A DNA stretch of 30,895 bases, taken from positions 1 to 30,895 of the forward strand of contig CAZQBW010000038.1 of NCBI GenBank assembly GCA_964591515.1, written 5' to 3'. This stretch comes from an uncultured Clostridia bacterium (GTDB lineage: Bacteria; Acidobacteriota; Blastocatellia; UBA7656; JADIYM01). Below the pieces are notes generated by a model. That model worked only from the letters and a program-made list of their open reading frames with translations. It made no database searches and had not been told where the DNA came from. Both the position numbers and the translations under genes were made by a program. Below are positions 4,427 through 30,895 of this stretch, one piece after another. Position 1 is the stretch's first letter; each line of letters begins with the position of its first letter.

Positions 4427-4456
4427 GGCCCGGCCGTCAGCCGGGCGCCTCGTGCA

Positions 4457-5707: not shown

Positions 5708-5972
5708 CGAGTCCCTCTGTTTGTCGATTCTCTGAGGTGCCAGGCGGAGCCGTCCCAGAGGGGACGGTGCCTAAGTCGAATCAAATCGGTCGTTTATACC
5801 AGTTCGGCACTTGTGATGTCAACATGCGGGGCCGGAAAAGTTGCTAGTTATCAGAACCACTGTTTCACCGCCTCGACGCTGCGCCGGTCGCCATCACGAG
5901 GCGAGGTTGAGGCAGTCGCAAACGGCGGGGTATGATGCCGGCTTCATGCTCCAGACAAATCCACAACCAATC

Positions 5973-9043: not shown

Positions 9044-9079
9044 ACAGACGGGCTCTGCCCGACTCGATGCGAGGTCCCC

Positions 9080-10093: not shown

Positions 10094-10157
10094 TACATCC
10101 TTCGCGCCCGCAGTCTGGTCGCGGCCCAAAGACTCCAAGAGACGAAGAGGTAACGAC

Positions 10158-11003
10158 ATGGCAGTGTTCGCGCACGATGAAAACCCGCTCGACGAGCGGG
10201 AATGGGAGCACCTGAAGGCGGTCGTCATCGACGTTGCGCGACGCCGTCTCGTGGGACGACGCATCATCGACATCCACGGACCGCTCGGGGCGGGCGTTCA
10301 GACGATCGTCCACGACCATTTCACCGGAACGACGATGGGCCAGCTCGGATTGACGGGCGAGGGCGACCCGGATCCGATGCGCTCGGTGCGCCGCGAAGCC
10401 GGCATCATCCCGATCATCTCGAAGGACTTCATCCTTCACTGGCGCGACCTCGAGACATCGAGGCTGACTGGCGTGGCGCTCGACACGGCCATTGCCGCGG
10501 GAGCCGCGGCATTCTGCGCGGATCGCGAGGATCATCTCGTATTCTTCGGTGATTCGGAGATGGGGTACGAGGGGCTGACGACGGTGGAAGGGCGGCTGAC
10601 GCTCGACCTGGGCGACTGGACGGTGCCTGGACAGCCGTTCAGCGACGTGGTTCGGGCCACGGAGTCGCTCGTGCAGGCCGGACATTACGGTCCTTACGCG
10701 CTCGTCGTGACGCCTGAGCTCTACTCGCAGATGCATCGTGTGCACCCGGGCACGAGCGTGCTCGAGATCGCGCACATCCGCGAGATCGTCACGGATGGCG
10801 TTTACCAGTCGTCGATTCTCGGAAAGAACCGCGCGGTGATCGTCTCGACCGGTCGCCAGAACTTCGATCTGGCCGTCGCACAGGATCTCACGGTCGCCTA
10901 CCTTGGCGCCGAGAACATGAACCACCCGTTCCGGGTGTTCGAGTCGGTCTATCTGCGAATCAAACGCCACAGCTCGATCTGCACGCTCGAGCGGCACGCG
11001 TAG
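10158..11003 (+). CDS. Family 1 encapsulin shell protein (Linocin_M18 / HK97 fold)
   Basis: 281 aa. It aligns over the full length with T. maritima encapsulin. [34 protein letters not shown] aligns with [48 protein letters not shown] aligns with [28 protein letters not shown] aligns with FKLILGQDLSIGYE. The RBS GAAGAGG sits 8 nt upstream of the ATG. Confidence 0.85.
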   Translation: [281 protein letters not shown]

Positions 11004-11027
11004 AGCCCTAGGCGACACTGGACGCAC

Positions 11028-11070
11028 GAAAGGCGCGACGCCCACATGGGCATCGCGCCTTTCTTCAATC
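11028..11070 (+). terminator. Hairpin terminator between the convergent encapsulin and rpsT genes
   Basis: gaaaggcgcgacgcccacatgggcatcgcgcctttc has an 11-bp GC-rich stem and is followed by ttcttcaat (T-rich) on the + strand. It could act in both directions. Confidence 0.5.
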
Positions 11071-11085
11071 GAGCGCGCTGTCGGA

Positions 11086-11361
11086 CTACTTGGTAACGGG
11101 TTTGGCCGTGTTCACGCGAGCCGTCAGACGCGACTTGTAACGCGCCGCGGCATTCCGGTGAACGACACCCTTCTGGATCGACTTGTCGATGACGGACATG
11201 ACTGCCGGAAGAAGTTCCTTGGCCCCCGCAACATCGCCGAGCGCCAGTGCCGTGCGCAGCTTCTTGATTTCGGTTCGCATCCGGCTGCCGTTCGCGCGAT
11301 TGACCGCACGACGCTTCTCATTCTGCCGGATTCGCTTGATCGAGGATTTGTGGTTCGCCAT
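11086..11361 (-). CDS. rpsT: 30S ribosomal protein S20
   Basis: MANHKSSIKRIRQNEKRRAVNRANGSRMRTEIKKL…HRNAAARYKSRLTARV is the canonical S20 sequence. Confidence 0.93.
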   Translation of the reverse strand: MANHKSSIKRIRQNEKRRAVNRANGSRMRTEIKKLRTALALGDVAGAKELLPAVMSVIDKSIQKGVVHRNAAARYKSRLTARVNTAKPVTK

Positions 11362-11452
11362 ACCGCTGTAGGTTTAGTCCTTTGTCGTTTTCGCGAAACG
11401 GCAACTATAGGTAGCGCAATGGGATCTGTCAAGCAGGAAGAACGAAGAGCAT

Positions 11453-11538
11453 CGCGGATTCAACGGATCTGGCGGATATGGCGGATCAACCGGTATTCAA
11501 GTCTGATTCGTGTCATCCGCTCAATCCGCTCAATCCGC
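11453..11538. promoter_or_regulatory. Array of six GCGGAT/ATCCGC hexamers (three forward, then three reverse) in the rpsT / proline dehydrogenase divergent intergenic region
   Basis: cgcGGATtcaacggatctgGCGGATatgGCGGATcaacc … catCCGCtcaATCCGCtcaATCCGCg. The reverse-orientation copies are spaced 9 bp apart (CCGCTCAAT ×2). Together they form a large imperfect inverted repeat. Confidence 0.5.
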
Positions 11539-11636
11539 GTTGCTCTTCATTCGTCCCACCCCAGGGATGACCAGTACTTTTGTTGCCTTCGCGCACCATT
11601 CCATGCAGAATGGCGCGACCCTTCCCTGCCACCATC

Positions 11637-12548
11637 ATGATGAAGAAAATCCTCCTCTACCTCTCCGAGCGTGAAGCGCCGAAGAAGATGCTCACGAGCA
11701 TCGCCCTCTTCAACAACGTCACGAAGCGCTTCGTCGCCGGCGAGACGGTCGACGAGGCCTCGGCGGCCATCAAGGTGCTCAATGCAAAGGGGATCTCCGC
11801 GACTTTCGACCACCTTGGAGAGGCCATCCGCAGCGAGGAAGAGGCCACGGCAGAAGTCGAGATGTACAGTCGGATCCTCGATCGTATCGAGTCCGACGGC
11901 CTCAACTCGAACGTCTCGCTCAAGCTCACCCAGCTCGGTCTCGATATCCGGAAGGAATTCTGCATCGAGAACCTCACCAAGATCGTCGAGCACGCCGCGA
12001 AGACCGGCAACTTCGTCCGAATCGACATGGAGGACTCGGGACATCTGGAGGCTACTCTCGAGGTCTTCCGGACCGTCCGGGCCAATCACGACAACGTCGG
12101 CATCGTCATCCAGTCCTACCTCTTCCGCAGCGAGCAGGACATTCGCGACCTGCTCGCGATAGGCGCGCGGATACGACTCTGCAAAGGCGCCTACAAAGAA
12201 CCGCCCGAGGTCGCCTTCCAGGCCAAGTCGAAGGTCGACGCGAACTATGTCGACCTCATGAAGATCCTTCTGCCGAGCGGCATCTACCACGGCATCGCGA
12301 CGCACGATCCCGCGATGATCAACGCGACAATCCGCTTCGCCCGTGAGCAGAAGCTGGATCAGAAGTGCTTCGAGTTCCAGATGCTGTACGGAATCGCCCG
12401 GGACAGGCAGCTCAAGCTCGTCGAGGAAGGCTTCAACGTGCGCGTCTACGTACCGTTCGGCCGCGCCTGGTATCCGTACTTCATGCGCAGGCTGGCCGAG
12501 CGGCCGGCGAACGTCCTCTTCATCCTTCGGGCCATGGTGAAGGGTTGA
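11637..12548 (+). CDS. Monofunctional proline dehydrogenase (PutA-type ProDH TIM barrel)
   Basis: Full-length similarity to T. thermophilus ProDH: RFVAGETVDEA…SLKLTQLGLD…VRIDMEDS…GIVIQSYLFRSEQD…RLCKGAYKEPPEVAF…THDP…FEFQMLYGI…VRVYVPFGRAWYPYFMRRLAERPANVLF. The start is set at the tandem ATG ATG at 11637, not at the ORF opening at 11580. Confidence 0.88.
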   Translation: MMKKILLYLSEREAPKKMLTSIALFNNVTKRFVAGETVDEASAAIKVLNAKGISATFDHLGEAIRSEEEATAEVEMYSRILDRIESDGLNSNVSLKLTQLGLDIRKEFCIENLTKIVEHAAKTGNFVRIDMEDSGHLEATLEVFRTVRANHDNVGIVIQSYLFRSEQDIRDLLAIGARIRLCKGAYKEPPEVAFQAKSKVDANYVDLMKILLPSGIYHGIATHDPAMINATIRFAREQKLDQKCFEFQMLYGIARDRQLKLVEEGFNVRVYVPFGRAWYPYFMRRLAERPANVLFILRAMVKG

Positions 12549-12603
12549 CCCGCGACCGGTGCGCGACGCGCCCGGCCGCGGTCTTCATCCCCTGAATCCC
12601 GGA

Positions 12604-13041
12604 TCAGATCGTCGGCGCGGAGTTGACGTAGGCGTTCATGTACTCGAGCACCTCCGCCTTCTCGGTCGCATCGACCCTGTACAGGTCGCGAATCGACACC
12701 ATGCCGATGACCAGATCTCCATTCGTGATCGGCAGATGCCGGCATTTGTTGTCGAGCATCTTCTTGATGCACGACTCGTACGTGTCGCCCGGCGAGCCGT
12801 GCACGAGCCGGCGCGACATCACGTCGTCGACACGAGTCTCCTTCGGATCCCGGCCCTCGGCCACGACCCGCTTCATCAGGTCGCGCTCCGAGATGATGCC
12901 GACGAGTTTCGTTTCGTCGATGACCGTTACGGCGCCGACGTTCCGTTCCGACATATACTTCGCGGCATCGACGACACTGGTGCCTGGACTGACGCTGTAG
13001 ACTTCCTGGTCGGCGATGAGGGAATCAATCGTCCTGTGCAT
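12604..13041 (-). CDS. CBS-domain pair protein
   Basis: 145 aa with two CBS motifs (…VSPGTSVVDAAKYMSERNVGAVTVID…GIISERDL… and …HLPITNGDLVIGMVSIRDL…). Confidence 0.8.
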   Translation of the reverse strand: MHRTIDSLIADQEVYSVSPGTSVVDAAKYMSERNVGAVTVIDETKLVGIISERDLMKRVVAEGRDPKETRVDDVMSRRLVHGSPGDTYESCIKKMLDNKCRHLPITNGDLVIGMVSIRDLYRVDATEKAEVLEYMNAYVNSAPTI

Positions 13042-13170
13042 CGTCGCACCTCCTGGTGGATGGGGACGGGGCCGAGGCTCGGGCCCGACTTGGACATCGA
13101 TGGGTGAACCGAGTGCGTGGAGGGCAGTTTACTCCCGAAACGCAATTGTCACTACGCCGAAGAGGAAGGA

Positions 13171-14651: not shown

Positions 14652-17131
<2,480 letters not shown>

Positions 17132-17932
17132 ATGAAGGATCTCGTCGGAACGGTCGAGTTCAACCGCCAGCTCGCGCCCCGGTATTTCCACATCCGGCTT
17201 CGACTTCCGGAGCCGGTCGACGTACTGTCCGGACAGTTCGCGATGCTGCGCCCGTCGGGACTCGTCGAGCCGATCCTGCGGCGAGCGCTGGCGATCCATC
17301 GTGCCGACGACTGCGCGGTCGAGTTCATCTACCTCGTGCTTGGCCGTGGTCTCGAGGCTCTCACGCGCGTGCGCGAGGGCGAGAACGTCGACGTACTGCT
17401 TCCGCTCGGCAACACATACCCGACGGACTCCGTCTTCAGTGAAGGCAGGCGCGCGCTCATCGTGGCGGGAGGAGTCGGTTCGCCGGCTCTCTTCATGCTG
17501 GCGGGCGATCTCGTGGCGAAGGGGGCGGACGTCCGCGTCTACTTCGGCGGACGCACACAATACGACCTGCCTGCTCTCAATGAATTCGAGGCGCTCGGCT
17601 GTCCGGTGACCGTGACGACCGACGATGGATCGGCCGGTGAGCGCGGCTTCGTGACGGCGCCGCTCGAGCGCGACCTCGCTGCGAACGCCGGCCCGAATGG
17701 CAGCGTCGTCTACACCTGCGGCCCGTGGCCGATGATGGCTCGCGTGGGCGCGATCGCCGCCGAACAGGGCGCGCAGTGCTTCGTGTCGCTCGAGGCGAGC
17801 ATGGCGTGCGGGTTCGGCATCTGCGTCGCGTGCGTCGTCGAGGTCTGCGAGGGCTCGTTCGCGCCTCCGTTCAAGTACCAGAAGGTCTGCACCGAAGGGC
17901 CCGTGTTTCCGGCGGAGGCGATCGTATGGTGA
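17132..17932 (+). CDS. pyrK: Dihydroorotate dehydrogenase electron-transfer subunit (PyrK; FAD/NAD-binding plus a 2Fe-2S cluster)
   Basis: It starts immediately after the pyrG stop (TAGATG). There is a C-terminal Cys cluster ([11 protein letters not shown]). It precedes pyrD and overlaps it. Confidence 0.8.
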
Positions 17933-18888
17933 ACACGACCGAGAGTTCCCGCGATCCGCGCCTCGCCGTCGAGGTTGCGGGCATCCGGTTCCACAATCCG
18001 ATTCTCACCGCCTCGGGCTGCTGCGGGTACGGCCTCGAGTTCGAACCGCTCTTCGATCTCTCGCGGATCGGCGGCATCTGCACGAAGGGACTCTCGTCGA
18101 GGCCGCTTCAGGGCAATCCCCCGCCCCGAATCCAGGAGACGCCGGCCGGCATGCTCAACGCGATCGGCCTGCAGAACATCGGCGCCCGCGCGTTCATCGA
18201 GCAGAAGCTGCCGCGATTGCGTGAATACGACGTCCGCGTGCTGACTAACGTTTTCGGCTACACCGTCGAGAACTACGTCGAGGCGATTCACATACTCAAC
18301 GACGGCGAAGGTATCGACGGCTACGAGTTGAACATTTCGTGCCCTAACGTGAAGGAAGGCGGGCTGATCATCGGCAACGACCCTCGCGCTGCCGCCGAGG
18401 TGACCGAGGCCGTGAAGCGCGTGGCGAAGCGGCCGGTAATCGTGAAGCTCTCGCCGAACATCAGCGACGTTGCCGGTATGGCTCGCGCGCTCGAGTCGGC
18501 TGGCGCGGACGCGCTCTCGCTCATCAACACGCTCGTCGGCGTGTCCATCGACATTCACACCCGGCGACCGAGAATCGCCAACGTCACTGGCGGACTCTCA
18601 GGACCCGCGATCAAGCCGGTGGCAGTTCGAATGGTCTGGCAGGCGGCAAGTGCCGTGAAGATCCCGCTCATCGGAATCGGCGGCATTGCGACGGCGGAGG
18701 ATGCCGTGGAGTTTCTCATCGCCGGCGCGACGGCGGTTCAGATCGGGACGGCGAGTTTCTACGATCCGTTGGCGACCGTCAAAGCCGTCGAAGGGCTGTC
18801 GAACTATCTCGACAAGGCGGGAATCGCGTCGGTGCGCGAGCTCACCGGATCCATCGATCTCGAAGCTCCGTTATCGCGCGGTCACTGA
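17926..18888 (+). CDS. pyrD: Dihydroorotate dehydrogenase catalytic subunit (class 1B)
   Basis: MVNTTES…[18 protein letters not shown]…GGICTKG…NAIGLQNIG…ELNISCPN…[10 protein letters not shown]…IGIGGI are PyrD motifs. The ATG at 17926 overlaps the pyrK stop. Confidence 0.88.
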
Positions 18889-19012
18889 GACAGCGCTGAG
18901 CTTCGCACACAGAGGCACGGAGACACGAAGGTCATCCGTCGTCTCCGACGGAATCCGGTTCTCTGTGCCTCAGAGGCTCTGTGTCTCTGTGTGCGAAGCT
19001 CTGTCAGGCCAC
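18889..19012. terminator. Complex inverted-repeat / hairpin cluster in the pyrD / regulator convergent spacer
   Basis: gagcttcgcacacagag at 18897-18913 is mirrored by ctctgtgtgcgaagctc at 18991-19007. Internal hairpins are cggagacacg…cgtcgtctccg and gcctcagaggc. The CTCTGTG motif occurs three times. Confidence 0.5.
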
Positions 19013-20881
19013 CCCGACGCGTCTTACGAGATCCAGGTACCGCGGATCCTTCCGCAACGGAGCGAGATTCGGATCCACGCCGATGAAGATCACGAAGAAG
19101 TCGCGCGCATCGTAGGCTTTTCGGAGCTGCTCGATCGCGCGATCGACGTCGCCCGTCTGCGCGTAGAGTCCGGCCAGCGAACACGGCGACTCACGCCCGC
19201 TGGCAATTCGCGCTCGGCAGAGCCCCAGCCAGCCTTTAGTGGCGTAGGCCCCCCGGAGCGCTGCAATGGCGTCCGTCCCCTCTCCTGCAATCTCCATCGA
19301 CCGGATGAGCGCAGCGACTGCATCATCGTGACGCCCGGCCCCGGCGTGCGCGGCGAAGAGATACTGATACGCAAACAGGAAGCTCGGGTCGAGCTCCAGC
19401 GCCTGCCGGCAATGCTCGATCGCTTCGTCATACTCGCCCGCGAAGTAGCAGATCTGCGCCATGTCGGCGCGCATGTTGGGCGAAACCGGATCGCATTCGA
19501 TCGCTCTGGCCAGGGAGGCCTTCGCTTCGGGGTAGCGTCCGCGGACAGCGAGCGAGATGGCGTACCACTGATGCGCCGTCGCGTAGTTGGGCGAAAGCTC
19601 GATCGCAAGACGCAACTCGTGGTCCGCCGTCGGCAGATCCCAGTGGTGGAACATCAAGTAGAAGCCCATCGACGCGTGGGCTTCGCCGATCGAGTCGTCG
19701 AGCTCGAGTGCCTTGCGGAGGGCTGGCTCGGCGAGTGGCGCCGCCTGGATCGAGTAGGCGTCGGCCAAACCGACGTGCGCGAGCGCAAAATTCGGGTCCT
19801 CCTCGATGGCGTCCTTGAAGCACTCGATACTCGCGCGCACGGCCTCGGTCGTCCGCTTGCTCCAGAGGTAGCGCCCCTTCAGATAGGACTCGTAGGCCCT
19901 GGCGCTCTGAGTGGGACGCGCCGCCGGACGCAATTCCTCCCCATCGAGCACGGGAGCCAGGCCTTTTGCAACGCGCGCCGCAATGGCGTCCTGCAGGACG
20001 AAGATGTCGGACGCGTCATTGTCGAACGTCTCGGTCCAGAGCGACGCGCCGTCTCGCGCACCGACGAGCTGCGCGGTCACCCGGATGCGACCCTCCGACG
20101 TCTGGATCCGACCGTCCAAGATGGCATCGACGCCGAGCGCGCGCCCGACGGCGATCGGATCATGGTCCCCTTCGGCATAGCGCTGGACCGCGCTCGTCGA
20201 TCGCACGCTGACGCGCTGGAGTCGGCCAAGTCGGCTGATGACGGCATCTGCCATTGCAATCTCGAGATAGGCTTTGTCGGCACGCGAGTCGTCGAGGACA
20301 CGAAACGGCAGCACCGCAATCGACCGGACGGCAAGCGGCGCTGCGATCGTTGCGGACCGATAACCGTTCCATGCGAAGACGAATGCTGCCACGGCGACGA
20401 CGAGCGCCACACCCGACAGGTACACCGCGGGCGATCCAAGTCGCGTGGCGGCCGGTGCGGAAACTGTGGCCACCTCTTCCCGAACCACAATCGAGGCGCG
20501 AGTCCGCCGGTGGACGGTCACCTCATTGTCGTCATCATCCAGTTCGTGGACTTCACCAACGAATCGATAGCCCCATCTCGGTACCGTCTCGATGTAGCGA
20601 TGCCCGTCGCCGTTCTCGCCGAGCGCCTTGCGCAGGATGGAGATGTACTGATTGAGGTTGTTCTCTTCGACGAAGGTGTCGGGCCAGACGGCCTCGAGCA
20701 ACTCGTCTTTCCGAACCGCGTGTCCCCGGTTCTCGACCAGCGCGCACAGTGTGTCGAACGCCTTAGGGGGAATGGTGACCGGCTCGCCATCGCGGAGCAG
20801 GTGGCGGTTGTCGGCGTCCAGGCGAAATGGCCCGAACTCGTAGAGATGCCTGGGATTCTCCGCCTTCATAAATCCCTTCAC
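19004..20881 (-). CDS. Membrane-anchored transcriptional regulator of the ToxR/CadC type. It has an N-terminal OmpR/PhoB-type winged-helix (Trans_reg_C) domain, one TM helix, and a periplasmic TolB_N-like plus TPR sensor region.
   Basis: …LRDGEPVTIPPKAFDTLCALVENRGHAVRKDELLEAVWPDTFVEENNLNQYISILRKALGE…IETVPRWGYRF matches the Trans_reg_C consensus. The TM segment is AVYLSGVALVVAVAAFVFAW. …SIAVLPFRVL… is TolB_N-like. The C-terminal ~300 aa carry multiple TPR-like repeats. Confidence 0.75.
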   Translation of the reverse strand: MKGFMKAENPRHLYEFGPFRLDADNRHLLRDGEPVTIPPKAFDTLCALVENRGHAVRKDELLEAVWPDTFVEENNLNQYISILRKALGENGDGHRYIETVPRWGYRFVGEVHELDDDDNEVTVHRRTRASIVVREEVATVSAPAATRLGSPAVYLSGVALVVAVAAFVFAWNGYRSATIAAPLAVRSIAVLPFRVLDDSRADKAYLEIAMADAVISRLGRLQRVSVRSTSAVQRYAEGDHDPIAVGRALGVDAILDGRIQTSEGRIRVTAQLVGARDGASLWTETFDNDASDIFVLQDAIAARVAKGLAPVLDGEELRPAARPTQSARAYESYLKGRYLWSKRTTEAVRASIECFKDAIEEDPNFALAHVGLADAYSIQAAPLAEPALRKALELDDSIGEAHASMGFYLMFHHWDLPTADHELRLAIELSPNYATAHQWYAISLAVRGRYPEAKASLARAIECDPVSPNMRADMAQICYFAGEYDEAIEHCRQALELDPSFLFAYQYLFAAHAGAGRHDDAVAALIRSMEIAGEGTDAIAALRGAYATKGWLGLCRARIASGRESPCSLAGLYAQTGDVDRAIEQLRKAYDARDFFVIFIGVDPNLAPLRKDPRYLDLVRRVGVA

Positions 20882-20905
20882 TGAAGATTCACGGCGGGTT
20901 CAGGA

Positions 20906-20942
20906 CACCGGTCCGGTGACCGGTCACAGTGCGTGCCACGCA
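20906..20942. promoter_or_regulatory. Cluster of overlapping palindromes (caccggtccggtg, gtgaccggtcac, tgcgtgccacgca) in the regulator / SBBP-operon divergent promoter
   Basis: Read directly: acaccggtccggtgaccggtcacagtgcgtgccacgca contains two 13-bp odd palindromes and one perfect 12-bp palindrome, which share CCGG/ACCGGT cores. Confidence 0.45.
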
Positions 20943-20998
20943 TTGTAGATCGGTTGGCAAGCGATTGGTACCAGCTTCTCGGCAAGCGCTGCCGCGTC

Positions 20999-21256
20999 AT
21001 GATCAGAACCCGCACTACCGAGTTCACCGTCGAAACGCAGGAGACCGTCGTGATCCGGCGGCCGACTACCGTTCGCGTCTGGTGCGTGAAGTGCGGGTCG
21101 ACGGTTCTCGCGGCCCGGCCGGAAACCGCGGCGGCCGCGAAAAGCGTCTCTCCCCGAGAGATCTACCGCCGCGTCGAATCCGGCGCTGTGCATTTCCAGG
21201 AGTCGGCTGACGGCCGGTTGCTGGTCTGCCTCGACTCTCTCATACCTCAGGAGTAG
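20999..21256 (+). CDS. Small hypothetical protein (~85 aa) containing WCVKCG and a C-terminal excisionase/HTH_17-like helix-turn-helix
   Basis: GC3 is high. The gene ends 4 nt before the SBBP1 start. …ETAAAAKSVSPREIYRRVESGAVHFQESADGRLLVCLDSL resembles the excisionase-family HTH pattern (…tvyrlvrsGelp…iGrr.ri). The ORF opens at 20933 but the first ATG is at 20999. Confidence 0.4.
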   Translation: MIRTRTTEFTVETQETVVIRRPTTVRVWCVKCGSTVLAARPETAAAAKSVSPREIYRRVESGAVHFQESADGRLLVCLDSLIPQE

Positions 21257-21260
21257 TGCC

Positions 21261-24200
21261 ATGAAGTCGACGCGTTGCCCCCAGGGTCGTTGGCGCGTTA
21301 TCGCCGCATTCGGATTGGCTATTGCGGTGACGATTCCCGCGGCCGGCTCGATTGCGCGACCGGTCCTGCCACGAACTGAGCGCCGACCGGACGCCATAGC
21401 GCTCCCGACTGAGCCGAAGGTGAATCCGTCGTTCGGGAGCCTGCCGATCAGCTTCGAGCCGAACGTCGGACAGGCGCCAGACGGGGTCCGGTTCCTGACG
21501 CGCGGATCGGCCGCTGCCTTGACCGCCACAGGAGCCGTGCTCGCGGGAGGCGCGACGCCCGTGTCGCTCGAGTTTGTCGGGGCGTCGGGCTCGGCCCGCG
21601 CCTCCGGCGCTGGCGAGTTGCCGGGAAAGGCCAACTACCTCGTCGGCAACGATCCGTCGAAGTGGAGGACGAACGTCCCGACCTATTCGTCGGTGCGCAT
21701 AGAGCAACTGTACGAAGGTGTCGATCTCGTCTGGTACGGAAAGGGACGGAGCCTCGAATATGACCTCGTCGTCTCGCCGGGCGCCGACCCGGACTCGATC
21801 GCTTTCGAGCTCGAGGGATTCCCCTCACCCGAGCTCGAGGCCGGCGGCGCGCTCGTGGCCGGCAGCGTCCGGCTCGAGCGCCCGTTTGCCTATCAGGAGA
21901 TCGACGGTGCGCGCTGCTCCGTCGCCAGCCGATACGCCGTGCGGGACTCGGGGCGAGTCGCGTTCGAGCTCGGCGACTTCGACCACTCGCTTCCGCTCGT
22001 CGTCGACCCGGAGATCGGCTACAGCTTCAGCCTCGCCGAATCGACGAAGGACATCGCGGTAAGCGGCATCTCGGTCGACCAGACTGGCTCTGCCTACGTT
22101 GTCGGCTCGAGCGCCCCCGCCGGCACGGGAGCCCGGGACGTCTACATCGCGAAGCTCAACCCCGAAGGAACGGCGCTCGTCTATTCGACGACGATCGGCG
22201 GAACGCGATACGACCTCGCGTACGACGTCGCCGTCGACGATGCGGGCAGTGCCTTCGTCACGGGCGAGACCCTTTCCAGCGACTTTCCCACGACGGCGGG
22301 AGCGTTTCAGCCGGCCTTCGCGAGCTCCAGCCCGGGCGATGCCGACGCTTTCGTCCTCAGGCTTGCGCCTGACGGCGCAACTCTCGTCTATGCCTCGTAT
22401 CTCGGGGGCGCAAAGTTCGACCACGGGAAGGACATCGTGATCGACGCGCCGGGCAATGCCTACGTCATCGGCACCACCACGTCGACCAACTTCCCGACCA
22501 CGGAGCCGGAGCAGGCAGGCAACGGCGGACTGGCCGACGCATTCATGACGATCGTCAATCCGACGGGAAGCGCGAAGGTCGCGTCGACCTACCTCGGCGG
22601 CTCCGAAAGCGACAACGGCGAGGGGATCGCGATCGACCCGGACGGAAACGTCTACGTCGTTGGAGCGACCTCCTCGACGAACTTCCCGGTGTCACCGGGT
22701 GCGCTGCAATCGACATTCGGCGGCGGCGTCATCGACGGCTTCTGGGCGAAATACGACCCGTCGGGCCAGCGCGTCGCATCGACCTATCTCGGCGGCTCTG
22801 GCGTCGACGTCGCCCGTGCGCTCGTCGTCGATGCCGCCGGGAATTCGTACCTGACCGGTGAGACGGACGTCACCGACTTTCCTGGAGTATCTCCGGTTGG
22901 CGGGAAGGTCACCGGCGGAAGCCGGGACGCCTTCGTCGTGCAGCTGAACGTGAACGGAACCGAAATCGAGTTCTCGATCTCCTTCGGCGGCAGTCAGTAC
23001 GAATCGGGGAATGCCATCGACTTCAACAGCGGCGGGCTGCTCTACATCGCGGGCGACACCTATTCGAGCGACGTTACTATGTTCGATCCCATTCAGGTGA
23101 CGTTCGGCGGAGGCATCTCGGACGCGTTTCTGCTGCAGTGCGACCCGAACGCGCCGGGTCCCGAATCCATCCAGTTCTGTACGTACATCGGCGATGAGCG
23201 AACGAACTTCGGTGTCGACTGCGGGGTCGGTCCGAACGACGAAGTGTGCGTGGCCAGCACGTCGCCGGACCTGAGCCCTGACGGATCGGAGAATGACGAG
23301 GGCGGGGTCGTCGAGTTCACCTTCGATCCGGCCGGACCGAAGCCCGACCTCAAGGTCAGCCTTGCAGTCTTTGACTACACGCCCAGAGAGGGTCGGCCGA
23401 GCGCCATCGTTCATGTGATCGTTCGGAGTACGAACGAATGTGCAGGACCGAAGGCTCCGAACGCCACGTTCTCCGTCGAGATACCGTTTGGGCTCGAGTT
23501 CGTCGGAGCAGCGGGAGGCGCGGCCGGCATTCGAGTGGTTTCGACGCCGCCCGTCGGCCAGCCGGGAGTGGTGACGTTCGCGATAGACCGAGCGGTCGAA
23601 CTTGACGGGACGGACCGCGGCACGGTCGGAGTGTCGCTTCCGGCCTCGGTTCCGTCGGCCGGCCCGTTCCAGCTCGAAGCATCGGCGTCGATCTCGGACG
23701 CGCTGGAATGCAACTATCGAAACAACACGGTCACTGGCGTCCTCGACATCGGCAAGCGCGTCTTTCAGCAAGGGGCCAGGCTGCTCGAGTTCAACGTGCT
23801 CGGGGACCCGACGGCCCCGCCAACAATTCAGATCGTGAACAACGCGACATCGCCTGGGGCGCTGCCGTCATCCCGACTCGCGGGCGGAACGCGCCGGTTC
23901 AACGTGTATGCCTCGACGCAGGCCGGTGTGCAGCCTGTGCCCTCGAATTTTTTCGTCTCGGTACCCGGCAGCCAGTCGTCCGTCGACGTGTCGACTGCTC
24001 CCGCCGGATCGTTTTTTGTTGTGACCACGGCGACTGACGACAGCGAGAGCGCGCCGTCGAACGAGGTCGGGGGCGTCCTGCCTACGGTCACCAAGCTGAG
24101 GGTGTCGGCGACGAAACTCGTTGCGCAGGGAACCGGCTTTGCTCCCGGCCTCCGGGTCCTGTTCGGCGGGCTGTCCTTCACGTCGGCCGCGTCTCTGAAG

Positions 24201-24353
24201 AAGAACAACACGAAAGTCATCCAGAAGGGCCCGCTGGTTTCGGGCCAGTCGATCGGCAGCTTCGCCGACCAGTACCTTAGCCCAGGCGCGAAGGTCGTAA
24301 TTCTCTTCGTCAATGCGAACGGAAGTGCGGTCGCGGTCGAATACACTCGGTAA
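21261..24353 (+). CDS. Secreted large SBBP-type beta-propeller repeat protein (paralog 1). It has an N-terminal conserved domain with the motif SLPISFEPNVGQAP and C-terminal CARDB-like and TIG-like domains.
   Basis: Signal peptide MKSTRCPQGRWRVIAAFGLAIAVTIPAAGSIA. Repeated units of the type YSTYLGGSxxDxGxxIAVDxxGNAYVxGxTxSxNFPTT are SBBP-like. PDLKVSLAVFDY…ATFSV is CARDB-like. The last ~95 aa are shared with paralog 2. An SD (AGGAG) precedes the start. Confidence 0.8.
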   Translation: MKSTRCPQGRWRVIAAFGLAIAVTIPAAGSIARPVLPRTERRPDAIALPTEPKVNPSFGSLPISFEPNVGQAPDGVRFLTRGSAAALTATGAVLAGGATPVSLEFVGASGSARASGAGELPGKANYLVGNDPSKWRTNVPTYSSVRIEQLYEGVDLVWYGKGRSLEYDLVVSPGADPDSIAFELEGFPSPELEAGGALVAGSVRLERPFAYQEIDGARCSVASRYAVRDSGRVAFELGDFDHSLPLVVDPEIGYSFSLAESTKDIAVSGISVDQTGSAYVVGSSAPAGTGARDVYIAKLNPEGTALVYSTTIGGTRYDLAYDVAVDDAGSAFVTGETLSSDFPTTAGAFQPAFASSSPGDADAFVLRLAPDGATLVYASYLGGAKFDHGKDIVIDAPGNAYVIGTTTSTNFPTTEPEQAGNGGLADAFMTIVNPTGSAKVASTYLGGSESDNGEGIAIDPDGNVYVVGATSSTNFPVSPGALQSTFGGGVIDGFWAKYDPSGQRVASTYLGGSGVDVARALVVDAAGNSYLTGETDVTDFPGVSPVGGKVTGGSRDAFVVQLNVNGTEIEFSISFGGSQYESGNAIDFNSGGLLYIAGDTYSSDVTMFDPIQVTFGGGISDAFLLQCDPNAPGPESIQFCTYIGDERTNFGVDCGVGPNDEVCVASTSPDLSPDGSENDEGGVVEFTFDPAGPKPDLKVSLAVFDYTPREGRPSAIVHVIVRSTNECAGPKAPNATFSVEIPFGLEFVGAAGGAAGIRVVSTPPVGQPGVVTFAIDRAVELDGTDRGTVGVSLPASVPSAGPFQLEASASISDALECNYRNNTVTGVLDIGKRVFQQGARLLEFNVLGDPTAPPTIQIVNNATSPGALPSSRLAGGTRRFNVYASTQAGVQPVPSNFFVSVPGSQSSVDVSTAPAGSFFVVTTATDDSESAPSNEVGGVLPTVTKLRVSATKLVAQGTGFAPGLRVLFGGLSFTSAASLKKNNTKVIQKGPLVSGQSIGSFADQYLSPGAKVVILFVNANGSAVAVEYTR

Positions 24354-24378
24354 ACCAGCTCCTCAAGGAGGCGGATCC

Positions 24379-27300
24379 ATGCGACTTCACCGCATCGCCA
24401 TTGCGCAACGCTCGGCCACGGTCCGGTCCGGTGTCCTGATGCTCCTGGCGTCGCTGGCGTGTTCGTCGGCCGCTCCCGCATCGACGACCCTCGAAGAGCC
24501 GATCTCCGCCGCCGTGCCCGCGGTTGCTGCTCCGGCAGCAGCTCGCGTCTCGCCCTCGTTTGGCAGTCTACCGGTCAGCTTCGAGCCGAACGTCGGGCAG
24601 GCGCCGGCAAATGAGAAGTACATCGTTGCAGGTGCTGATGCAGCTGCGGTGACCGCAACGGGCGTCGTGCTCCGAGGCGGTTCCAAGCCCGTGACGCTCG
24701 AGTTCATTGGGGCGTCGACGTCGGCCAGCATGACTGGGACGAATGAGCTTGCCGGAAAGGCCAACTACCTCGTCGGCGACGATCCGTCGGCTTGGAAGAC
24801 GAACGTGCCGACGTATGCGTCGGTCCGCGTCGAGCAGCTCTACCCGGGCGTCGACCTGGCTTGGTACGGAAAGGGTCGGAGCCTCGAGTTCGACCTCGTG
24901 CTGGAGGCTGGCGCCGATCCGGGCAATGTCTCGTTCAAGCTCGACGGCGTTCCCGCGCCCATTCCCGAGATCGGTCCGGACGGCGCGCTCGTCGCTGGCG
25001 ACGTACGGTTCGAGCGGCCGGTCGCCTATCAGGAGGTCGACGAGGTGCGCAAAGCGGTTCCGTGCGGATATGTCACCAACGGCGATGGACGCGTCGGCTT
25101 CCGGCTCGGCGAATACGACCACTTGCTCCCGCTCGTCATCGATCCGGAGATCGGCTACACCTACACGTTCGCGGATTCGAGCAAGGACATCTCGATATTC
25201 GGCATTGCCGTCGATTCGACCGGAGCGGCGTACGTCGCCGGACGGACGCGAACCGAGGGCTCCGGCGGAGTGCTCACTGTGGCCGCCTTCGTCGCCAAGC
25301 TGAATCCGGAGGGCACGGCGCTCGTCTACTCGACGACGATTTCCGGGTCGGCGGGCAACGAGGAGGCGCGCGACATCGCGGTCGACGCCACGGGCAACGC
25401 CTTCATTACGGGCTTCGTGTTCTCGAGCAATTTCCCGACGACCGCCGGAGCGTTTCAGACGACGAAGGGATCGCCGAACGGAACCCAGGATGCGTTCGTC
25501 GCGAAGCTCGCGCCGGGGGGCGACTCGTTCGTCTACTCGTCGTTCCTCGGAGGCAGCGGAGGTACGTCCGGAAGCAGGATCGCGATCGACGCCAGCGGCA
25601 ATGCCTTCGTGGCCGGCTTTACACAGTCGAGCAACTTCCCGACGACGTCACCAGCACAGGGGACGTTCGGCGGGGTCCGCGACGCATTCCTGACGAAGGT
25701 CAACGCCGCGGGCAGCGCGAAGACCTATTCGACCTATCTCGGCGGAAGTCAGAGTGACACCGGCAACGACGTCGCGGTCGATGCGTCGGGCAGTGCCTAC
25801 GTCGTCGGCGTGACGACGTCTACGAACTTCCCTGTCTCGGCGGGCACGATCCAGGGAACAAGCGGCGGCGGTTCGGACGGTTTCTGGGCGAAGTACGATC
25901 CGGCCGGACAGCGGGTGGCGTCGACGTATCTTGGCGGCACGGGATTCGACAGCGCGAACGGCGTCGCGGTAGATGCGGCTGGAAACAGCTATCTCACCGG
26001 CGAGACGGCATCGCCCGAATTTCCGCTCGTGGCGCCGGTACAGTCGACGATCGCCGGGGATCGCGACGCCTTCATCACCTCGCTGAACGGGTCCGGGACG
26101 GCGACGACTTTCTCTACGTTCTACGGTGGCACCCGGTACGACTACGGAACCGCAATTGCCCTGGGTGGCACGGGCTCAATCGACGTCGTCGGCACGACCG
26201 AATCGAACGATTTCCCTGCAGTTGACCCAGTCCAATCCACGTTCGGCGGTGGAGTCTCGGATGCGTTTGTCATCCGATTGGGCTTCGGTACGACCGCCGG
26301 GCGACTCGAGCTTCCATTGCCGACGGTGACATCTTCCTCGTATCAAGGCGGCCCCGGTCGCGAGACGGGCGCAGCCGTCGGGCCGAACGGTGCGAATGGG
26401 GTCGCCGTCGCAACGAGTCAGCAAAAGGACAGCCCTCAAGGCGGACACGACGAAGCCGGTGTCACGACATACACTTACGTCGGACCGCCCGCTCCCGACC
26501 TCGCCGTGACAGGTGCGCTTGCGGGAACCTACACCTCCAATGGTGAGCGGTACTACCTGATCTTCGTGCTCGCTACCAGCACAACGCGTTGCTCCGCGGA
26601 CCTGCTCGCACCGAATGCCACGTTCGGCGTCGTCCTTCCGGCGGGAGTCCGCTTCAAGGGCGTCTTTGCGTCAAACCGCGACGTCACGGTAACGGACCGG
26701 CCTGATGTGGACCACGCAGGTGCAGTGACGTTCACGTACTCGAAAGCGGTGCCCATTCTGAGGCCAAACCAGGAGTTCGCCGCGTTTCCATCGTCGGCAT
26801 ACGTCCTCGTGACGGTGGAGGACCCACAGGTCACTTCCCTCCCCGTGAACTTCTTCGCGTCGGTCAGCGGAAGTCTCGAGTGTTACTACGACAACAACGA
26901 GCAGACCAAGGTCCTGGACCTTCTAAGCAAGGGACTTCGACTCGGCTTCGGTTCGAAAACACTCCAGGTGTTTGGCTATTCTCCCGAAGGCTCCGGTAAG
27001 CCCGTTACACGAATGATCGGTGACGCCGTTCCCGACCTGAATCCACCTCACCGGTCGGAGTTGGTACCTGGGCTCGTCGGATTCAATGTCTACATGTCAG
27101 TGAGCCCCGGCGTTCAACCGGTCGAAGCGAATCGGATTGGCTTCATTCCGGCGGACCAGGTGTTCTTCGACGCCTCGGATACGCCCAGCGGGGCGTTCTT
27201 CATTCTTACGGCGGTCTCCGCGGACGGAGAGTCCGAAGCATCGAACGAGGTCGGAGGAGCGTTGCCTTCGGTATCGTCGCTGAAAGTCAGCGGGACGAAA

Positions 27301-27540
27301 CTTGTGGCGAAGGGAGCGGGCTTCGCGACGGACGTTCGCGTTTACTTTGCGGACAATGCCTTTGAGCAGGCACCGAAGTTGAAGGCGGGAAATTCGAAGC
27401 TCACCCAGAAAGGACTGCTCGAGAGAGGCACGACCATTGGCGAGTTCACGTCATCGCTGCTGATTCGGGGATCGAAGGTACTGGTCCTGTTCGTCAATGG
27501 CAACGGAAACGCCGTGGCGACTGAGTACATGGTGCCGTAG
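24379..27540 (+). CDS. Secreted large SBBP-type beta-propeller repeat protein (paralog 2), a tandem duplicate of the upstream gene
   Basis: A perfect SD (AAGGAGG) precedes the ATG at 24379. Signal peptide MRLHRIAIAQRSATVRSGVLMLLASLACSSAAP. It is ~60-65% identical to paralog 1 over the N-terminal domain (SLPVSFEPNVGQAP…KANYLVGDDPSAWKTNVPTY…) and the SBBP repeats. It has the same C-terminal domain. Confidence 0.8.
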   Translation: MRLHRIAIAQRSATVRSGVLMLLASLACSSAAPASTTLEEPISAAVPAVAAPAAARVSPSFGSLPVSFEPNVGQAPANEKYIVAGADAAAVTATGVVLRGGSKPVTLEFIGASTSASMTGTNELAGKANYLVGDDPSAWKTNVPTYASVRVEQLYPGVDLAWYGKGRSLEFDLVLEAGADPGNVSFKLDGVPAPIPEIGPDGALVAGDVRFERPVAYQEVDEVRKAVPCGYVTNGDGRVGFRLGEYDHLLPLVIDPEIGYTYTFADSSKDISIFGIAVDSTGAAYVAGRTRTEGSGGVLTVAAFVAKLNPEGTALVYSTTISGSAGNEEARDIAVDATGNAFITGFVFSSNFPTTAGAFQTTKGSPNGTQDAFVAKLAPGGDSFVYSSFLGGSGGTSGSRIAIDASGNAFVAGFTQSSNFPTTSPAQGTFGGVRDAFLTKVNAAGSAKTYSTYLGGSQSDTGNDVAVDASGSAYVVGVTTSTNFPVSAGTIQGTSGGGSDGFWAKYDPAGQRVASTYLGGTGFDSANGVAVDAAGNSYLTGETASPEFPLVAPVQSTIAGDRDAFITSLNGSGTATTFSTFYGGTRYDYGTAIALGGTGSIDVVGTTESNDFPAVDPVQSTFGGGVSDAFVIRLGFGTTAGRLELPLPTVTSSSYQGGPGRETGAAVGPNGANGVAVATSQQKDSPQGGHDEAGVTTYTYVGPPAPDLAVTGALAGTYTSNGERYYLIFVLATSTTRCSADLLAPNATFGVVLPAGVRFKGVFASNRDVTVTDRPDVDHAGAVTFTYSKAVPILRPNQEFAAFPSSAYVLVTVEDPQVTSLPVNFFASVSGSLECYYDNNEQTKVLDLLSKGLRLGFGSKTLQVFGYSPEGSGKPVTRMIGDAVPDLNPPHRSELVPGLVGFNVYMSVSPGVQPVEANRIGFIPADQVFFDASDTPSGAFFILTAVSADGESEASNEVGGALPSVSSLKVSGTKLVAKGAGFATDVRVYFADNAFEQAPKLKAGNSKLTQKGLLERGTTIGEFTSSLLIRGSKVLVLFVNGNGNAVATEYMVP

Positions 27541-27821
27541 GTCGTCCTCGACGCTGTTCCGCGAGGATGGCTGACGTTTCCGTTCGCACGGCGGGCCGAC
27601 TAAAGGTCCTTATCGGACAAGGTGTACGACGACGAGACGCTCCAGCGATTTCGCCGGTGAACGCGAAACAACCGGGTTGGCTCGAGATGGTCGATTCGTT
27701 CGGAGCCGAATGCATCCTCTGACCGATTGCCGAGGTCAAGCCGATGCTCGGTCCGCTCGAAGCGTCCGGTCGATGGCGCGTCCAGCGCGGCGGGCTGAGA
27801 AGCTCTGGTAAACTCGCGCCC

Positions 27822-28571
27822 ATGCAGCTTCCAGGCACCCCCCGCGAACGTCTCGTCGTCGCCCTCGACGTCGAATCCGGAGCCGAAGCCATCGCGCTCG
27901 TCGAACGGCTCAGCGGCACCGTCGGCATGTTCAAGGTCGGCAAGCAGCTTTTCACCGCCGAAGGCCCTGCCCTCGTGCGCGAGATCGTCGGCCGCGGCGA
28001 GCGCGTCTTCCTCGACCTGAAGTACCATGACATTCCGGCCACGGTCGCGAAGGCCTGCGTCGAAGGCACGCGCCTCGGCGTCTCGATCCTGAACGTGCAT
28101 GCTGCCGGCGGACGGCAGATGCTGACCGAAGCCGTGAAGGCCGTCGATGCGGTCTGTGCATCCGAGAATCTCGAGCGTCCGCTGCTGCTCGCCGTGACGG
28201 TGCTGACGAGCATGGACGACGAAAACCTCGCCGAGACCGGCGTTGCGGGCACGGCGGCCGAACAGGTCGTCCGCCTCGCAAGCCTGGCACGCGACTGCGG
28301 GCTCGACGGCGTAGTTGCGTCGCCGCTCGAAATCGAGCTCATCCGCCGCGACGTCGCGCGAGAGCCGTTTGCGATCCTCACGCCCGGCATTCGACCCGCG
28401 GGCGATGCCAAGGGTGATCAGAAGCGCGTATTGACCCCGGCCGAGGCTGTCGCGGCAGGCGCGACGTTCCTTGTCGTCGGTCGTCCGATCACGGCCGCCG
28501 CGGATGCGAAGGCCGCCGCCCAGCGCATCGCCGCCGAGATGGAGGCAGCGCCCGGCTCGGCATCGGCGTGA
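27822..28571 (+). CDS. pyrF: Orotidine 5'-phosphate decarboxylase
   Basis: …RLVVALDV…MFKVGKQLF…VFLDLKYHDIP…LNVHAAGG…LTSM…TPGIRP…DQKRV…GATFLVVGRPI are OMPdecase motifs. The start is taken at 27822 (MQLPGTPRE), not the ORF opening at 27744. Confidence 0.85.
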   Translation: MQLPGTPRERLVVALDVESGAEAIALVERLSGTVGMFKVGKQLFTAEGPALVREIVGRGERVFLDLKYHDIPATVAKACVEGTRLGVSILNVHAAGGRQMLTEAVKAVDAVCASENLERPLLLAVTVLTSMDDENLAETGVAGTAAEQVVRLASLARDCGLDGVVASPLEIELIRRDVAREPFAILTPGIRPAGDAKGDQKRVLTPAEAVAAGATFLVVGRPITAAADAKAAAQRIAAEMEAAPGSASA

Positions 28572-30678: not shown

Positions 30679-30895
30679 TTGGGTGTCTCCTTCGAGTGAC
30701 AGTTCAGAGGTGCGAGGAGTATTGCAGACGGTGTGCGTCGGATCTTGCGGAGGTTTGGCGGGATCTTGCGGTGTTGAAGGGGATGAGAAGGCTTCGCATA
30801 CAGAGTTGCCCATGCGGCTTCGTGGCACCCCCTTTGATGTAACGGAACGGATTGGGAGCAGACCGTCCTGGAGCGACATTTGCGGCCCACGGAGA

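Follow-up and report, generated by a model that had tools for sequence, protein, structure and literature searches.

Why should a cluster of pyrimidine genes be split by a membrane regulator and two large, apparently secreted proteins, and is the block that splits it a newcomer or an old resident? The question is raised by contig CAZQBW010000038.1 (assembly GCA_964591515.1), deposited as DNA of an uncultured Clostridia bacterium and placed by GTDB in the Blastocatellia (Acidobacteriota); its 30,895 nucleotides (nt), analysed whole, are called the window here. An earlier note on this DNA had described a self-contained accessory cassette inserted between pyrD and pyrF, and its gene layout and coordinates were borne out by Pfam and NCBIfam scans of larger open reading frames (ORFs) chosen across the window, flanks included. 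The genes run in the order kdsB-pyrG-pyrK-pyrD, REG, a small ORF of 85 amino acids (aa), SBBP1, SBBP2, pyrF and an alpha/beta-hydrolase gene, where REG is a transmembrane regulator encoded on the minus strand, and SBBP1 and SBBP2 are paralogous proteins with SBBP repeats.

Soils and activated sludge hold large numbers of Blastocatellia and other Acidobacteriota, which are difficult subjects for genetics. Many ToxR-like regulators with tetratricopeptide repeat (TPR) sensors are encoded in their genomes, as are many very large secreted repeat proteins, and to our knowledge almost nothing is known of how either of these works. We conclude that the ~8.8-kb block in the window (approximately 19003-27790) is probably a long-resident, vertically inherited and dispensable locus of one Blastocatellia lineage, in which REG and the small protein would control secreted SBBP proteins that undergo recombination, and not a mobile island.

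Results

The block between pyrD and pyrF appears old and dispensable

The closest genome in the species-level collection, a Blastocatellia metagenome-assembled genome from activated sludge (L006), has the same site without the block: kdsB-pyrG-pyrK-pyrD is followed, after 181 bp, by pyrF and the hydrolase gene, with flanks of ~89% nucleotide identity to the window. The left flanking core gene, pyrD (17926-18888, plus strand; Pfam DHO_dh, 1.8e-77), is 93% identical to its L006 orthologue, and the right one, pyrF (27822-28571, plus strand), matches the NCBIfam model for orotidine-5'-phosphate decarboxylase above its cut-off (1.5e-83). Alignment of the junctions placed the indel between ~19003 and 27776-27797, and only the last 25-45 nt of the spacer before pyrF (from ~27776-27797) are homologous to the empty site. 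In other Acidobacteriota, too, pyrD lies directly before pyrF, at a distance of 30-150 bp. On this comparison of gene order, the cassette is indeed accessory, as had been claimed.

A presence/absence difference of 8.8 kb with so clean an empty site in L006 is also what one would see if a horizontal island had recently been acquired between pyrD and pyrF, with the inverted repeat on its left as the insertion scar, and the cassette is indeed absent from L007, L008, L012 and L016 as well as from other Acidobacteriota. However, we found the cassette at the same site in L122 (pyrF 94% identical), in L086-L089 (pyrD 92-93%, pyrF 90%) and in L090, so that it is shared by at least four species-level lineages, and SBBP genes lie upstream of pyrF in two more distant ones. 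One of these, L121 (pyrF 74%), has REG, the small ORF and SBBP, followed by five genes before pyrF; these extra genes (L121 5594-11835) encode a Chalcone_3 protein, a NYN nuclease, a sigma-54 response regulator, a histidine kinase and a Na+/H+ exchanger. In still more distant Blastocatellia (pyrF ~60%), an unrelated gene for a secreted protein of ~300 aa stands between pyrD and pyrF (L007 9038-10001; L012 9032-10001; L016 5487-6507), while L008 has only a gap of 220 bp. Judged from these gene orders, the pyrD/pyrF gap appears to be a recurrent site of gene gain and loss.

Neither composition nor divergence sets the block apart from the genome around it. The window has ~64% GC with no compositional break over 18.9-27.8 kb, and the GC content (0.60-0.66), GC at third codon positions (GC3, 0.71-0.82) and codon use of the cassette fall inside the range of the flanking core genes; the profile of GC and codon use across 19-27.5 kb, which the earlier note had proposed as a check, thus showed no deviation from core genes. 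Similarly, the synonymous divergence (dS) of the window from L122 does not differ between the cassette (REG 0.53, small ORF 0.48, N-terminal parts of the SBBP genes 0.32-0.59) and the flanks (pyrF 0.49, hydrolase gene 0.47). We found no integrase, transposase or recombinase gene in the Pfam and NCBIfam scans of the larger ORFs, no tRNA, riboswitch or Rfam RNA at gathering score in the window or its spacers, and no target-site duplication or direct or terminal repeat at the junctions when compared with the empty site.

Nor does the inverted repeat on the left mark the end of the block. The repeat that had been taken as its left boundary exists, as an imperfect hairpin with 34-nt arms and a 36-nt loop (18898-19001; arms 18898-18931 and 18968-19001; RNA folding energy -69.7 kcal/mol, z = -6.3), but L006, at its empty site, also has the homologous element after pyrD, and L086 has it as well, so that it belongs to the flank. 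Moreover, its core motif, GCTTCGCACACAGAG, recurs in intergenic DNA, at 30791-30805 of the window and at 2372-2386, 2405-2419 and 9839-9853 of L006; the hairpin looks like a member of a dispersed, REP-like family of elements in these Blastocatellia. The idea that the inverted repeat is a cassette end was rejected on these grounds, and a recent horizontal island is, given this evidence as a whole, very improbable.

How, then, did L006 come to lack the block? The PyrF tree, ((window,L122),(L089,L006)),L121,L120, with bootstrap values of 95-99%, nests L006 among cassette-bearing lineages, and the empty site is thus most likely a secondary and remarkably clean deletion. This should hold under either branching, since the outgroups L120 and L121 carry SBBP upstream of pyrF. 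Two points weigh against this history. The pyrG-pyrD flank leaves the window, L086 and L006 as a trichotomy (site support 47, 39 and 34), and for that reason the loss in L006 rests on the PyrF tree and outgroup parsimony. In addition, the L121 contig begins inside REG and the pyrD side lies off the contig. The order in L120 (pyrD 84%, pyrF 68%; 8986-13120) is pyrD, a DDAH gene on the minus strand, SBBP and pyrF, with neither REG nor the small ORF. The outgroup distribution, the equal dS of cassette and flanks and the core-like GC3 and codon use nevertheless argue that the block entered once, deep in the lineage, and has passed down vertically from then on as a dispensable locus. The claim of an inserted accessory cassette therefore stands as regards dispensability; any reading of it as recent or mobile does not.

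REG and the small ORF form the apparent core of the locus

The block opens with two divergent genes, REG (19004-20869, minus strand, with an alternative GTG start at 20881) and the small ORF (20999-21256, plus strand). A metagenome scan with an alignment of the small ORF gave 25 loci of 38-83% identity, 21 of which were informative (at least 400 nt upstream). A Trans_reg_C gene was divergent and directly adjacent in 11 of these 21 and within one gene in three more, for a total of 14/21. In an independent sample of five distant members of the small-ORF family, picked solely for their long contigs, a Trans_reg_C-TPR gene of 650-666 aa lay divergently upstream in all five and was directly adjacent in four. 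Transmembrane regulators of the ToxR-like kind are a known class, enriched in Acidobacteriae, and make up ~0.15% of bacterial genes, being somewhat commoner in that group (PMC10269533), so neighbors of this kind occur far more often than chance would give. The order REG, small ORF, SBBP was likewise constant in all cassette-bearing relatives, down to 52-55% small-ORF identity, which bears out the proposed linkage of regulator and cargo. On the other side of the balance, one four-member subfamily (L106, L107, L109, L113) among the seven loci without a REG neighbor adjoins a hydroxyacyl-CoA dehydrogenase gene. From its recurrence across these loci, we take the divergent pair of REG and small ORF to be the conserved core of the locus. 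In one relative, L123, two tandem REG-type paralogues (655 and 652 aa; 2833-6784) stand upstream of a single small-ORF relative.

What lies downstream of the small-ORF relatives differs by locus. Where sequence was available, the cargo mostly consisted of signal-peptide proteins with repeat folds, among them an FG-GAP_2 propeller, a DUF5122 propeller, a Beta_helix protein, a Peptidase_S74 tail-fibre-like protein and weak SLH matches. The gene next downstream in L123 and L124 encodes a protein of ~410 aa with a weak SLH match. In L117 (6269-9638) a Tn3-family transposase gene (DDE_Tnp_Tn3, 1.2e-124) comes immediately after the small-ORF relative, the sole association with a mobile element in the family sample.

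In the window, the cargo consists of SBBP1 (21261-24353, plus strand, 1030 aa) and SBBP2 (24379-27540, plus strand, 1053 aa). The small ORF stop and the SBBP1 ATG are separated by 4 nt, with an AGGAG 8 nt before the ATG and inside the small ORF; this spacing is identical in the window, L087-L090 and L122, and in L121 the genes abut or overlap. Since the gap between SBBP1 and SBBP2 is likewise short, at 25 nt, the small ORF and the SBBP genes almost certainly form one operon.

We considered that REG and the small ORF might be a regulatory pair of their own, with the SBBP genes as mere neighbors under separate control and REG acting on itself or on distant genes. The diversity of the small-ORF cargo would fit this, as it is sometimes non-secreted (the 3-hydroxyacyl-CoA dehydrogenase, encoded on the other strand, and the Tn3 transposase), and in L120 an SBBP gene is found at the site without the pair, so that SBBP is not strictly dependent on it; the conserved repeats described below, moreover, adjoin the start of REG, as expected for autoregulation. 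However, the conserved 4-nt gap with its internal AGGAG leaves too little space for a promoter between the small ORF and SBBP1, the gene order has been kept over long divergence, and the next downstream gene encodes a signal-peptide protein in most loci. Thus, we judge separate control of the SBBP genes to be unlikely, and continue with the reading that REG and the small protein would control the SBBP operon.

REG has the architecture of a ToxR-like one-component regulator

The N-terminus of REG is an OmpR/ToxR-type winged helix (approximately aa 28-103; Trans_reg_C, PF00486, 2.7e-19, with the match placed at aa 32-107 when the 625-aa ORF is numbered from the GTG at 20881). It is followed by a single hydrophobic segment at aa 144-170 (Kyte-Doolittle score 2.46) and by an alpha/beta region of ~450 aa that ends in TPRs matched by multiple TPR families; the receiver domain Response_reg was not matched in REG by Pfam. 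This order of domains suggests a cytoplasmic winged helix, one transmembrane segment and an extracytoplasmic, TPR-containing sensor, which is the predicted architecture of a ToxR-like transmembrane one-component regulator. For REG, the ratio of nonsynonymous to synonymous divergence (dN/dS) relative to L122 is 0.14, and it is 0.12 for the sensor domain alone.

The anchored, minus-strand regulator of CadC/ToxR type that the earlier note had described is therefore present in its winged helix, single hydrophobic segment and TPRs. In contrast, the TolB_N domain also ascribed to it was not among the best 25 of 26 Pfam matches listed, and the CadC model itself failed (NF007540; 59.3 bits against a cut-off of 400, with the match confined to aa 21-143). 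The HilA/EilA model was rejected as well (NF009037; 89.9 bits against 589), although it was the best NCBIfam match to the N-terminal 110 aa of REG (1.2e-25) and covered only that part.

Compared with known systems, REG resembles the ToxR/TcpP/CadC/VtrA class in its N-terminal OmpR/PhoB winged helix without a receiver, its one transmembrane segment and its C-terminal extracytoplasmic sensor, but the sensor itself (~450 aa, alpha/beta and TPR) differs from the periplasmic domains of CadC, ToxR and VtrA. Like HilA/EilA, REG combines an OmpR/ToxR winged helix with TPRs; HilA is soluble, whereas REG has a transmembrane segment between these two parts. A further difference lies in the partner, since the conserved partner of REG is a divergently encoded, cytoplasmic small protein predicted to bind DNA, and the co-components ToxS, TcpH and VtrC reside in the periplasm (PMC9214523).

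The small ORF is a conserved gene for a predicted winged helix-turn-helix protein

The small ORF has 15 close homologues in which its length is kept, and its dN/dS relative to L122 is 0.13. The window protein matched no Pfam or NCBIfam family, but a profile search of a library of 1.84 billion proteins found 2,716 clusters at E<=1e-3 (1,022 at E<=1e-10), nearly all of them proteins of 80-140 aa aligned end to end. This is a large family that has no curated Pfam or NCBIfam model.

Residues C29, C32, H65 and C77 are invariant across 40 divergent members, and this C-C-H-C tetrad is a putative zinc site. In an AlphaFold2 model (mean predicted local distance difference test, pLDDT, 75.6) the protein has a CxxC beta-hairpin, then two helices (41-48 and 52-61) and a two-stranded wing (66-68 and 74-77). 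The best Foldseek neighbors were BldC (6ama) and the Xis of mycobacteriophage Pukovnik (4j2n), with probabilities of 0.99-1.0; the C-terminal 45-50 aa superimpose on them with a root-mean-square deviation of 1.5-2.4 A and template modelling scores of 0.64-0.70 (target-normalised). The Foldseek E-values, by comparison, were weak (~0.1) despite the high probabilities, which counts against the assignment. Ten of the 40 relatives matched HTH_17 (PF12728; best 2.5e-6) and two matched MerR, while the window protein matched neither at E<=0.01. The conservation and the structural model together argue that the small ORF is a genuine conserved gene whose product has a predicted winged helix-turn-helix (HTH) of the BldC/Xis/MerR kind, in agreement with the earlier description of it as a small HTH-like ORF.

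The protein adds to the fold of BldC, Xis/RdfS and the MerR N-terminal domain an N-terminal segment with the CxxC beta-hairpin and the invariant C-C-H-C. A role as an excisionase is unlikely because no recombinase lies nearby; in contrast to excisionases, the genomic partner of the small protein here is a transmembrane regulator.

Phased repeats beside REG are a candidate operator

The promoter of this divergent pair had been placed at 20882-21260, but most of that interval is small ORF sequence; the true intergenic region between REG and the small ORF is 20870-20998, or 129 nt. The clustered palindromes reported in it are present, but they are conserved only among close relatives, unlike two other elements: a phased array of direct repeats next to REG and an ATTGTA...ATTGGTA pair next to the small ORF.

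The array consists of three direct repeats of TTCA[C/G] at 20877, 20888 and 20899 (20877-20906), 8-37 nt upstream of the REG ATG. It reads TTCAC, TTCAC, TTCAGGAC, with an exact phasing of 11 bp, and it has been kept in orthologues down to 64% REG identity. More widely, we found the pattern TTNRRGAY 26-51 nt from the REG ATG in 16 of 18 REG/small-ORF loci (25 occurrences, against 2.7 in shuffles). In a comparison that uses no motif, self-similarity with a period of 10-12 bp, measured over the 55 nt adjoining the REG start, gave a mean z of 2.2 across 20 non-redundant loci, with nine loci above 2, and the next 55 nt, taken as a control, gave a mean z of 0.02 with one locus above 2. OmpR/ToxR-type winged helices bind helically phased direct repeats, and the array is for this reason a candidate REG operator, or it may be part of the REG promoter. 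Direct repeats with a phasing of ~11 bp adjoining the gene are shared with the ToxR/CadC class, as expected for this DNA-binding domain.

Between the array and the small ORF lies a conserved pair, ATTGTAGATCGG (20942-20953) and GATTGGTA (20963-20970), on the plus strand 29-57 nt upstream of the small ORF. The two are among the longest invariant blocks in an intergenic alignment of seven orthologous loci, a conservation that suggests that they may be the operon promoter or a site for the small protein. Inspection by eye also raised an ECF-type or sigma-70-type reading of the conserved motifs as a possibility.

Several results tell against this picture of the control region. The pattern TTNRRGAY was defined after the data had been seen, and in a hold-out of five new loci it was found exactly in only two; the other three, inspected by eye, had close variants such as CTCAGGAC and TACAGGAC slightly farther upstream. 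The phased-repeat score of the window alone (z = 1.3) was not significant. A scan for the sigma-70 consensus found no promoter in the non-coding DNA of the region, ATTGTAGATCGG/GATTGGTA included, and no intrinsic terminator was found in that non-coding DNA; two weak terminator-like sites lie inside SBBP2, fewer than in shuffles. Finally, all of the regulation proposed here is derived from gene order and conserved DNA.

We also note that window positions 20900-20916 (17 nt, with TCAGGAC) recur inverted at 24423-24439, within the first 60 nt of SBBP2, where 16 of 17 positions are complementary. L087 has the inverted copy too, while L122 lacks it; the match may have arisen by chance or may mark a second site for the regulator.

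SBBP1 and SBBP2 are propeller proteins with predicted Ig-like C-terminal parts

SBBP1 and SBBP2 are 48% identical and have the same architecture: an N-terminal signal-like sequence, with which they would be exported past the inner membrane, then DUF7948 (PF25778) and SBBP repeats (PF06739). In SBBP1, DUF7948 covers aa 65-251 (1.1e-46, 160 bits) and the SBBP match (1.3e-30, 105.5 bits) belongs to a propeller that extends to approximately aa 640; the corresponding values for SBBP2 are 1.5e-41 (143.2 bits) and 3.8e-23 (81.6 bits), where the Pfam cut-offs are 27 bits for DUF7948 and 20.5 bits for SBBP. The remainder of SBBP1 (aa 641-1030) matched no Pfam family at E<=5, CARDB (PF07705) and TIG (PF01833) included, and no PDB sequence; the only Pfam match in the C-terminal region of SBBP2 was Cadherin_5, at E 0.14.

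The fold of this part of SBBP1 was therefore considered from an AlphaFold2 model of aa 641-1030 (pLDDT 80), which is all-beta with approximately four sandwiches like those of immunoglobulin (Ig) and fibronectin type III (FN3) domains. Its Foldseek neighbors include the Bap BSP domain, the Ig-like domain of PrgB, Gram-positive pilins, the CLIPPER fibrillar-adhesin domain and integrin-alpha legs. Integrin alpha has the same layout of a propeller followed by Ig-like legs, a resemblance that is not evidence of homology. Thus, the earlier description of two paralogous, secreted SBBP proteins of ~1050 aa agrees with the signal-like N-termini, DUF7948, SBBP repeats and mutual identity found here, while the CARDB and TIG domains named in it were undetected by Pfam, although the predicted fold is Ig/FN3-like.

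In SBBP1, the Ig-like region is variable over approximately aa 690-940 (nt 23331-24080) and is followed by a conserved C-terminal domain ending in VAVEYTR; the variable region of SBBP2 is approximately aa 600-960. Conservation returns over the terminal 90-120 aa in every relative, and the last ~90 aa of all SBBP proteins at this locus, with an (N)GNGNAVAVEYTR end, are kept even where the Ig-like region before them has been replaced. In the window these conserved ends lie at 24080-24353 and 27260-27540. The C-terminal domain could serve in sorting, anchoring or partner binding, and it matched no known C-terminal sorting family.

What might these proteins do? An adhesin-like role is suggested by analogy, from the fold neighbors, from LipL53, an SBBP lipoprotein of Leptospira that binds extracellular matrix molecules (Oliveira et al. 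2010, as cited in PMC11350617), and from the secreted beta-propeller matrix adhesins Bap1 and RbmC of Vibrio cholerae (PMC10102183). LipL53 shares SBBP repeats, a secretion signal and a modular architecture with SBBP1 and SBBP2, which in contrast are twice as long, start with DUF7948 and end in approximately four Ig-like domains. The LipL53 family model was rejected for both (NF047494; 86.1 and 72.1 bits against a cut-off of 400), and no canonical lipobox was found in their N-termini. Weighing against a surface role, no recognisable outer-membrane or surface sorting signal was found in the SBBP proteins, which could therefore be periplasmic. An anti-phage function was also considered, and a PADLOC search with the four proteins of the block matched no family at E<=0.001.

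Alternatively, the SBBP proteins might be extracytoplasmic enzymes or substrate-capturing proteins for the use of polymers, with a catalytic or carbohydrate-binding propeller and with REG sensing the substrate or its products. Beta-propellers commonly hold catalytic or glycan-binding sites, the proteins show no anchor signal, and relatives fuse DUF7948-SBBP to many other domains. In addition, the REG sensor has stayed conserved (dN/dS 0.12) against a varying Ig-like region, so the cue that REG would sense is probably not the variable part of the SBBP proteins. However, no enzyme family was matched by SBBP1 or SBBP2 in Pfam, NCBIfam or PDB sequences, the C-terminal part has adhesin stalks, pilins and integrin legs as its structural neighbors, and LipL53, the only SBBP protein for which experimental data could be traced, is an adhesin. 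Recombinational swapping of an exposed region, described next, is also more typical of surface or binding proteins than of enzymes. We therefore regard an enzymatic role as a minor possibility beside an adhesin-like one.

The 3' thirds of the SBBP genes appear to be exchanged by recombination

Aligned with L122, the window shows 76-96% nucleotide identity through REG, the small ORF and the leading two-thirds of both SBBP genes, and identity falls in two hypervariable segments. The first (23360-24560, plus strand) comprises the 3' third of SBBP1 and extends into the 5' end of SBBP2, with 46-62% identity to L122, and the second (26160-27760, plus strand) covers the 3' third of SBBP2 and most of the spacer, with 45-62%. 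In segment 1, dS is 2.1, compared to 0.32 in the N-terminal part of SBBP1; in segment 2, which has slightly lower GC (0.604) and GC3 (0.706), it is 3.1 or saturated. At the protein level, identity to L122 is 30-36% in the variable cores and ~55% in the terminal ~90 aa. Divergence at synonymous sites on this scale points to old alleles brought in by recombination and not merely to fast evolution, and we conclude that the 3' thirds have in all likelihood been replaced in this way.

A comparison within one species-level population is consistent with this. L089 and L087 are 99-100% identical over 3.9 kb, and identity then falls abruptly to 53-68% from codon 505 of SBBP1. L089 (2387-5482) has one SBBP gene and no SBBP2, while L087 (2387-8678) has two; SBBP copy number and the Ig-like region thus appear to be polymorphic between strains. 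The single gene of L089 was considered as a deletion chimera of SBBP1 and SBBP2, but its 3' part resembles neither L087 3' part and is closest to SBBP1 of the window. On the other hand, the comparison relies mostly on metagenome contigs, and chimeric assembly of strains or paralogues is possible for single ones, such as L089. The window allele itself was found repeatedly: the SBBP1 protein is unchanged in five independent metagenome assemblies, in which the cassette proteins are 100% identical over the covered parts and one partial pyrF match is 98%.

A diversity-generating retroelement (DGR) was rejected as the source of the variation, as no reverse transcriptase was found in the scanned window ORFs, no repeat matches the variable regions, and the divergence hits all bases and includes indels. 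In their conserved 5' parts, divergent 3' alleles and sharp breakpoint, the SBBP genes resemble other recombining surface loci (pilins, adhesin alleles, tail-fibre-like proteins and polymorphic toxins); they differ from these in that the variable, Ig-like part is internal and the last 90-120 aa are conserved. Moreover, in contrast to polymorphic-toxin and pilin loci, the window has no toxin-immunity pair, silent cassette or DGR reverse transcriptase.

Flanking genes and the start of pyrF

The other genes of the pyrimidine cluster are kdsB (14652-15440), pyrG (15437-17131) and pyrK (17132-17932), each assigned with Pfam and NCBIfam, and the rest of the window is ordinary core genome, with glmU-like and cofD-like genes, leuS, holA, an encapsulin gene and ino1. 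The encapsulin shell gene (Linocin_M18, 1e-64; 10158-11003) adjoins holA, upstream of the pyrimidine genes.

Downstream of SBBP2, a non-coding spacer of 281 nt (27541-27821) has no conserved ORF, Rfam match or tRNA, in line with the right boundary of ~280 bp claimed before. Its last part, GCTCTGGTAAACTCGCG (27797-27821), directly precedes the pyrF ATG and is conserved among the window, L006 and L089; within it, TGGTAAACT looks like an extended -10 box, with its end 7 nt short of that ATG. Judged from this short stretch, pyrF may be transcribed from a promoter of its own into an mRNA with no leader or a very short one, and this would account for pyrF being undisturbed by the cassette.

Discussion

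The cassette that seemed to interrupt a biosynthetic cluster is an ordinary accessory locus; what merits attention in it is the pairing of a regulator with a partner protein, the small-protein family, and the Ig-like regions that swap alleles. We propose that REG would sense an extracytoplasmic cue through its conserved sensor domain and would bind the phased direct repeats in the 129-nt region, controlling its own gene, the operon of small ORF and SBBP genes, or both. The small protein would be a second DNA-binding component, acting as a co-activator or as a feedback element, and its gene would open an operon for secreted cargo, which here is two SBBP paralogues. These would serve as binding or adhesin-like proteins beyond the cytoplasm, and the Ig-like region in their middle would be diversified by allelic replacement through homologous recombination.

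A bolder extension, which we offer tentatively and consider rather doubtful, is that REG-type regulators, as membrane-tethered sensors and DNA binders, and CCHC small winged-HTH proteins, as diffusible partners that bind DNA in a zinc-dependent way, form an undescribed and widespread two-protein signalling module that recognizes phased repeats and switches on operons for large secreted repeat proteins, and that the SBBP pair is a polymorphic surface locus under its control. The pairing was seen here mostly in Acidobacteriota, and we found no specific description in the literature of such a pairing, of DUF7948 or of SBBP in Acidobacteria, although the search coverage was incomplete. If this extension were true, the exchange of the SBBP Ig-like region would fit a determinant of specificity, for recognition of kin or partners, as a target of phages or predators, or for variable ligand binding.

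The locus offers a compact unit of regulator, partner and cargo with a defined 129-nt control region, an unannotated family of small proteins (~2,700 clusters) that travels with these regulators, and a natural series of presence/absence and allele-swap variants for probing the role of the SBBP proteins. It also indicates that a block which interrupts a biosynthetic cluster can be old and vertically inherited, and that an empty site, as here, can mean loss and not the absence of gain.

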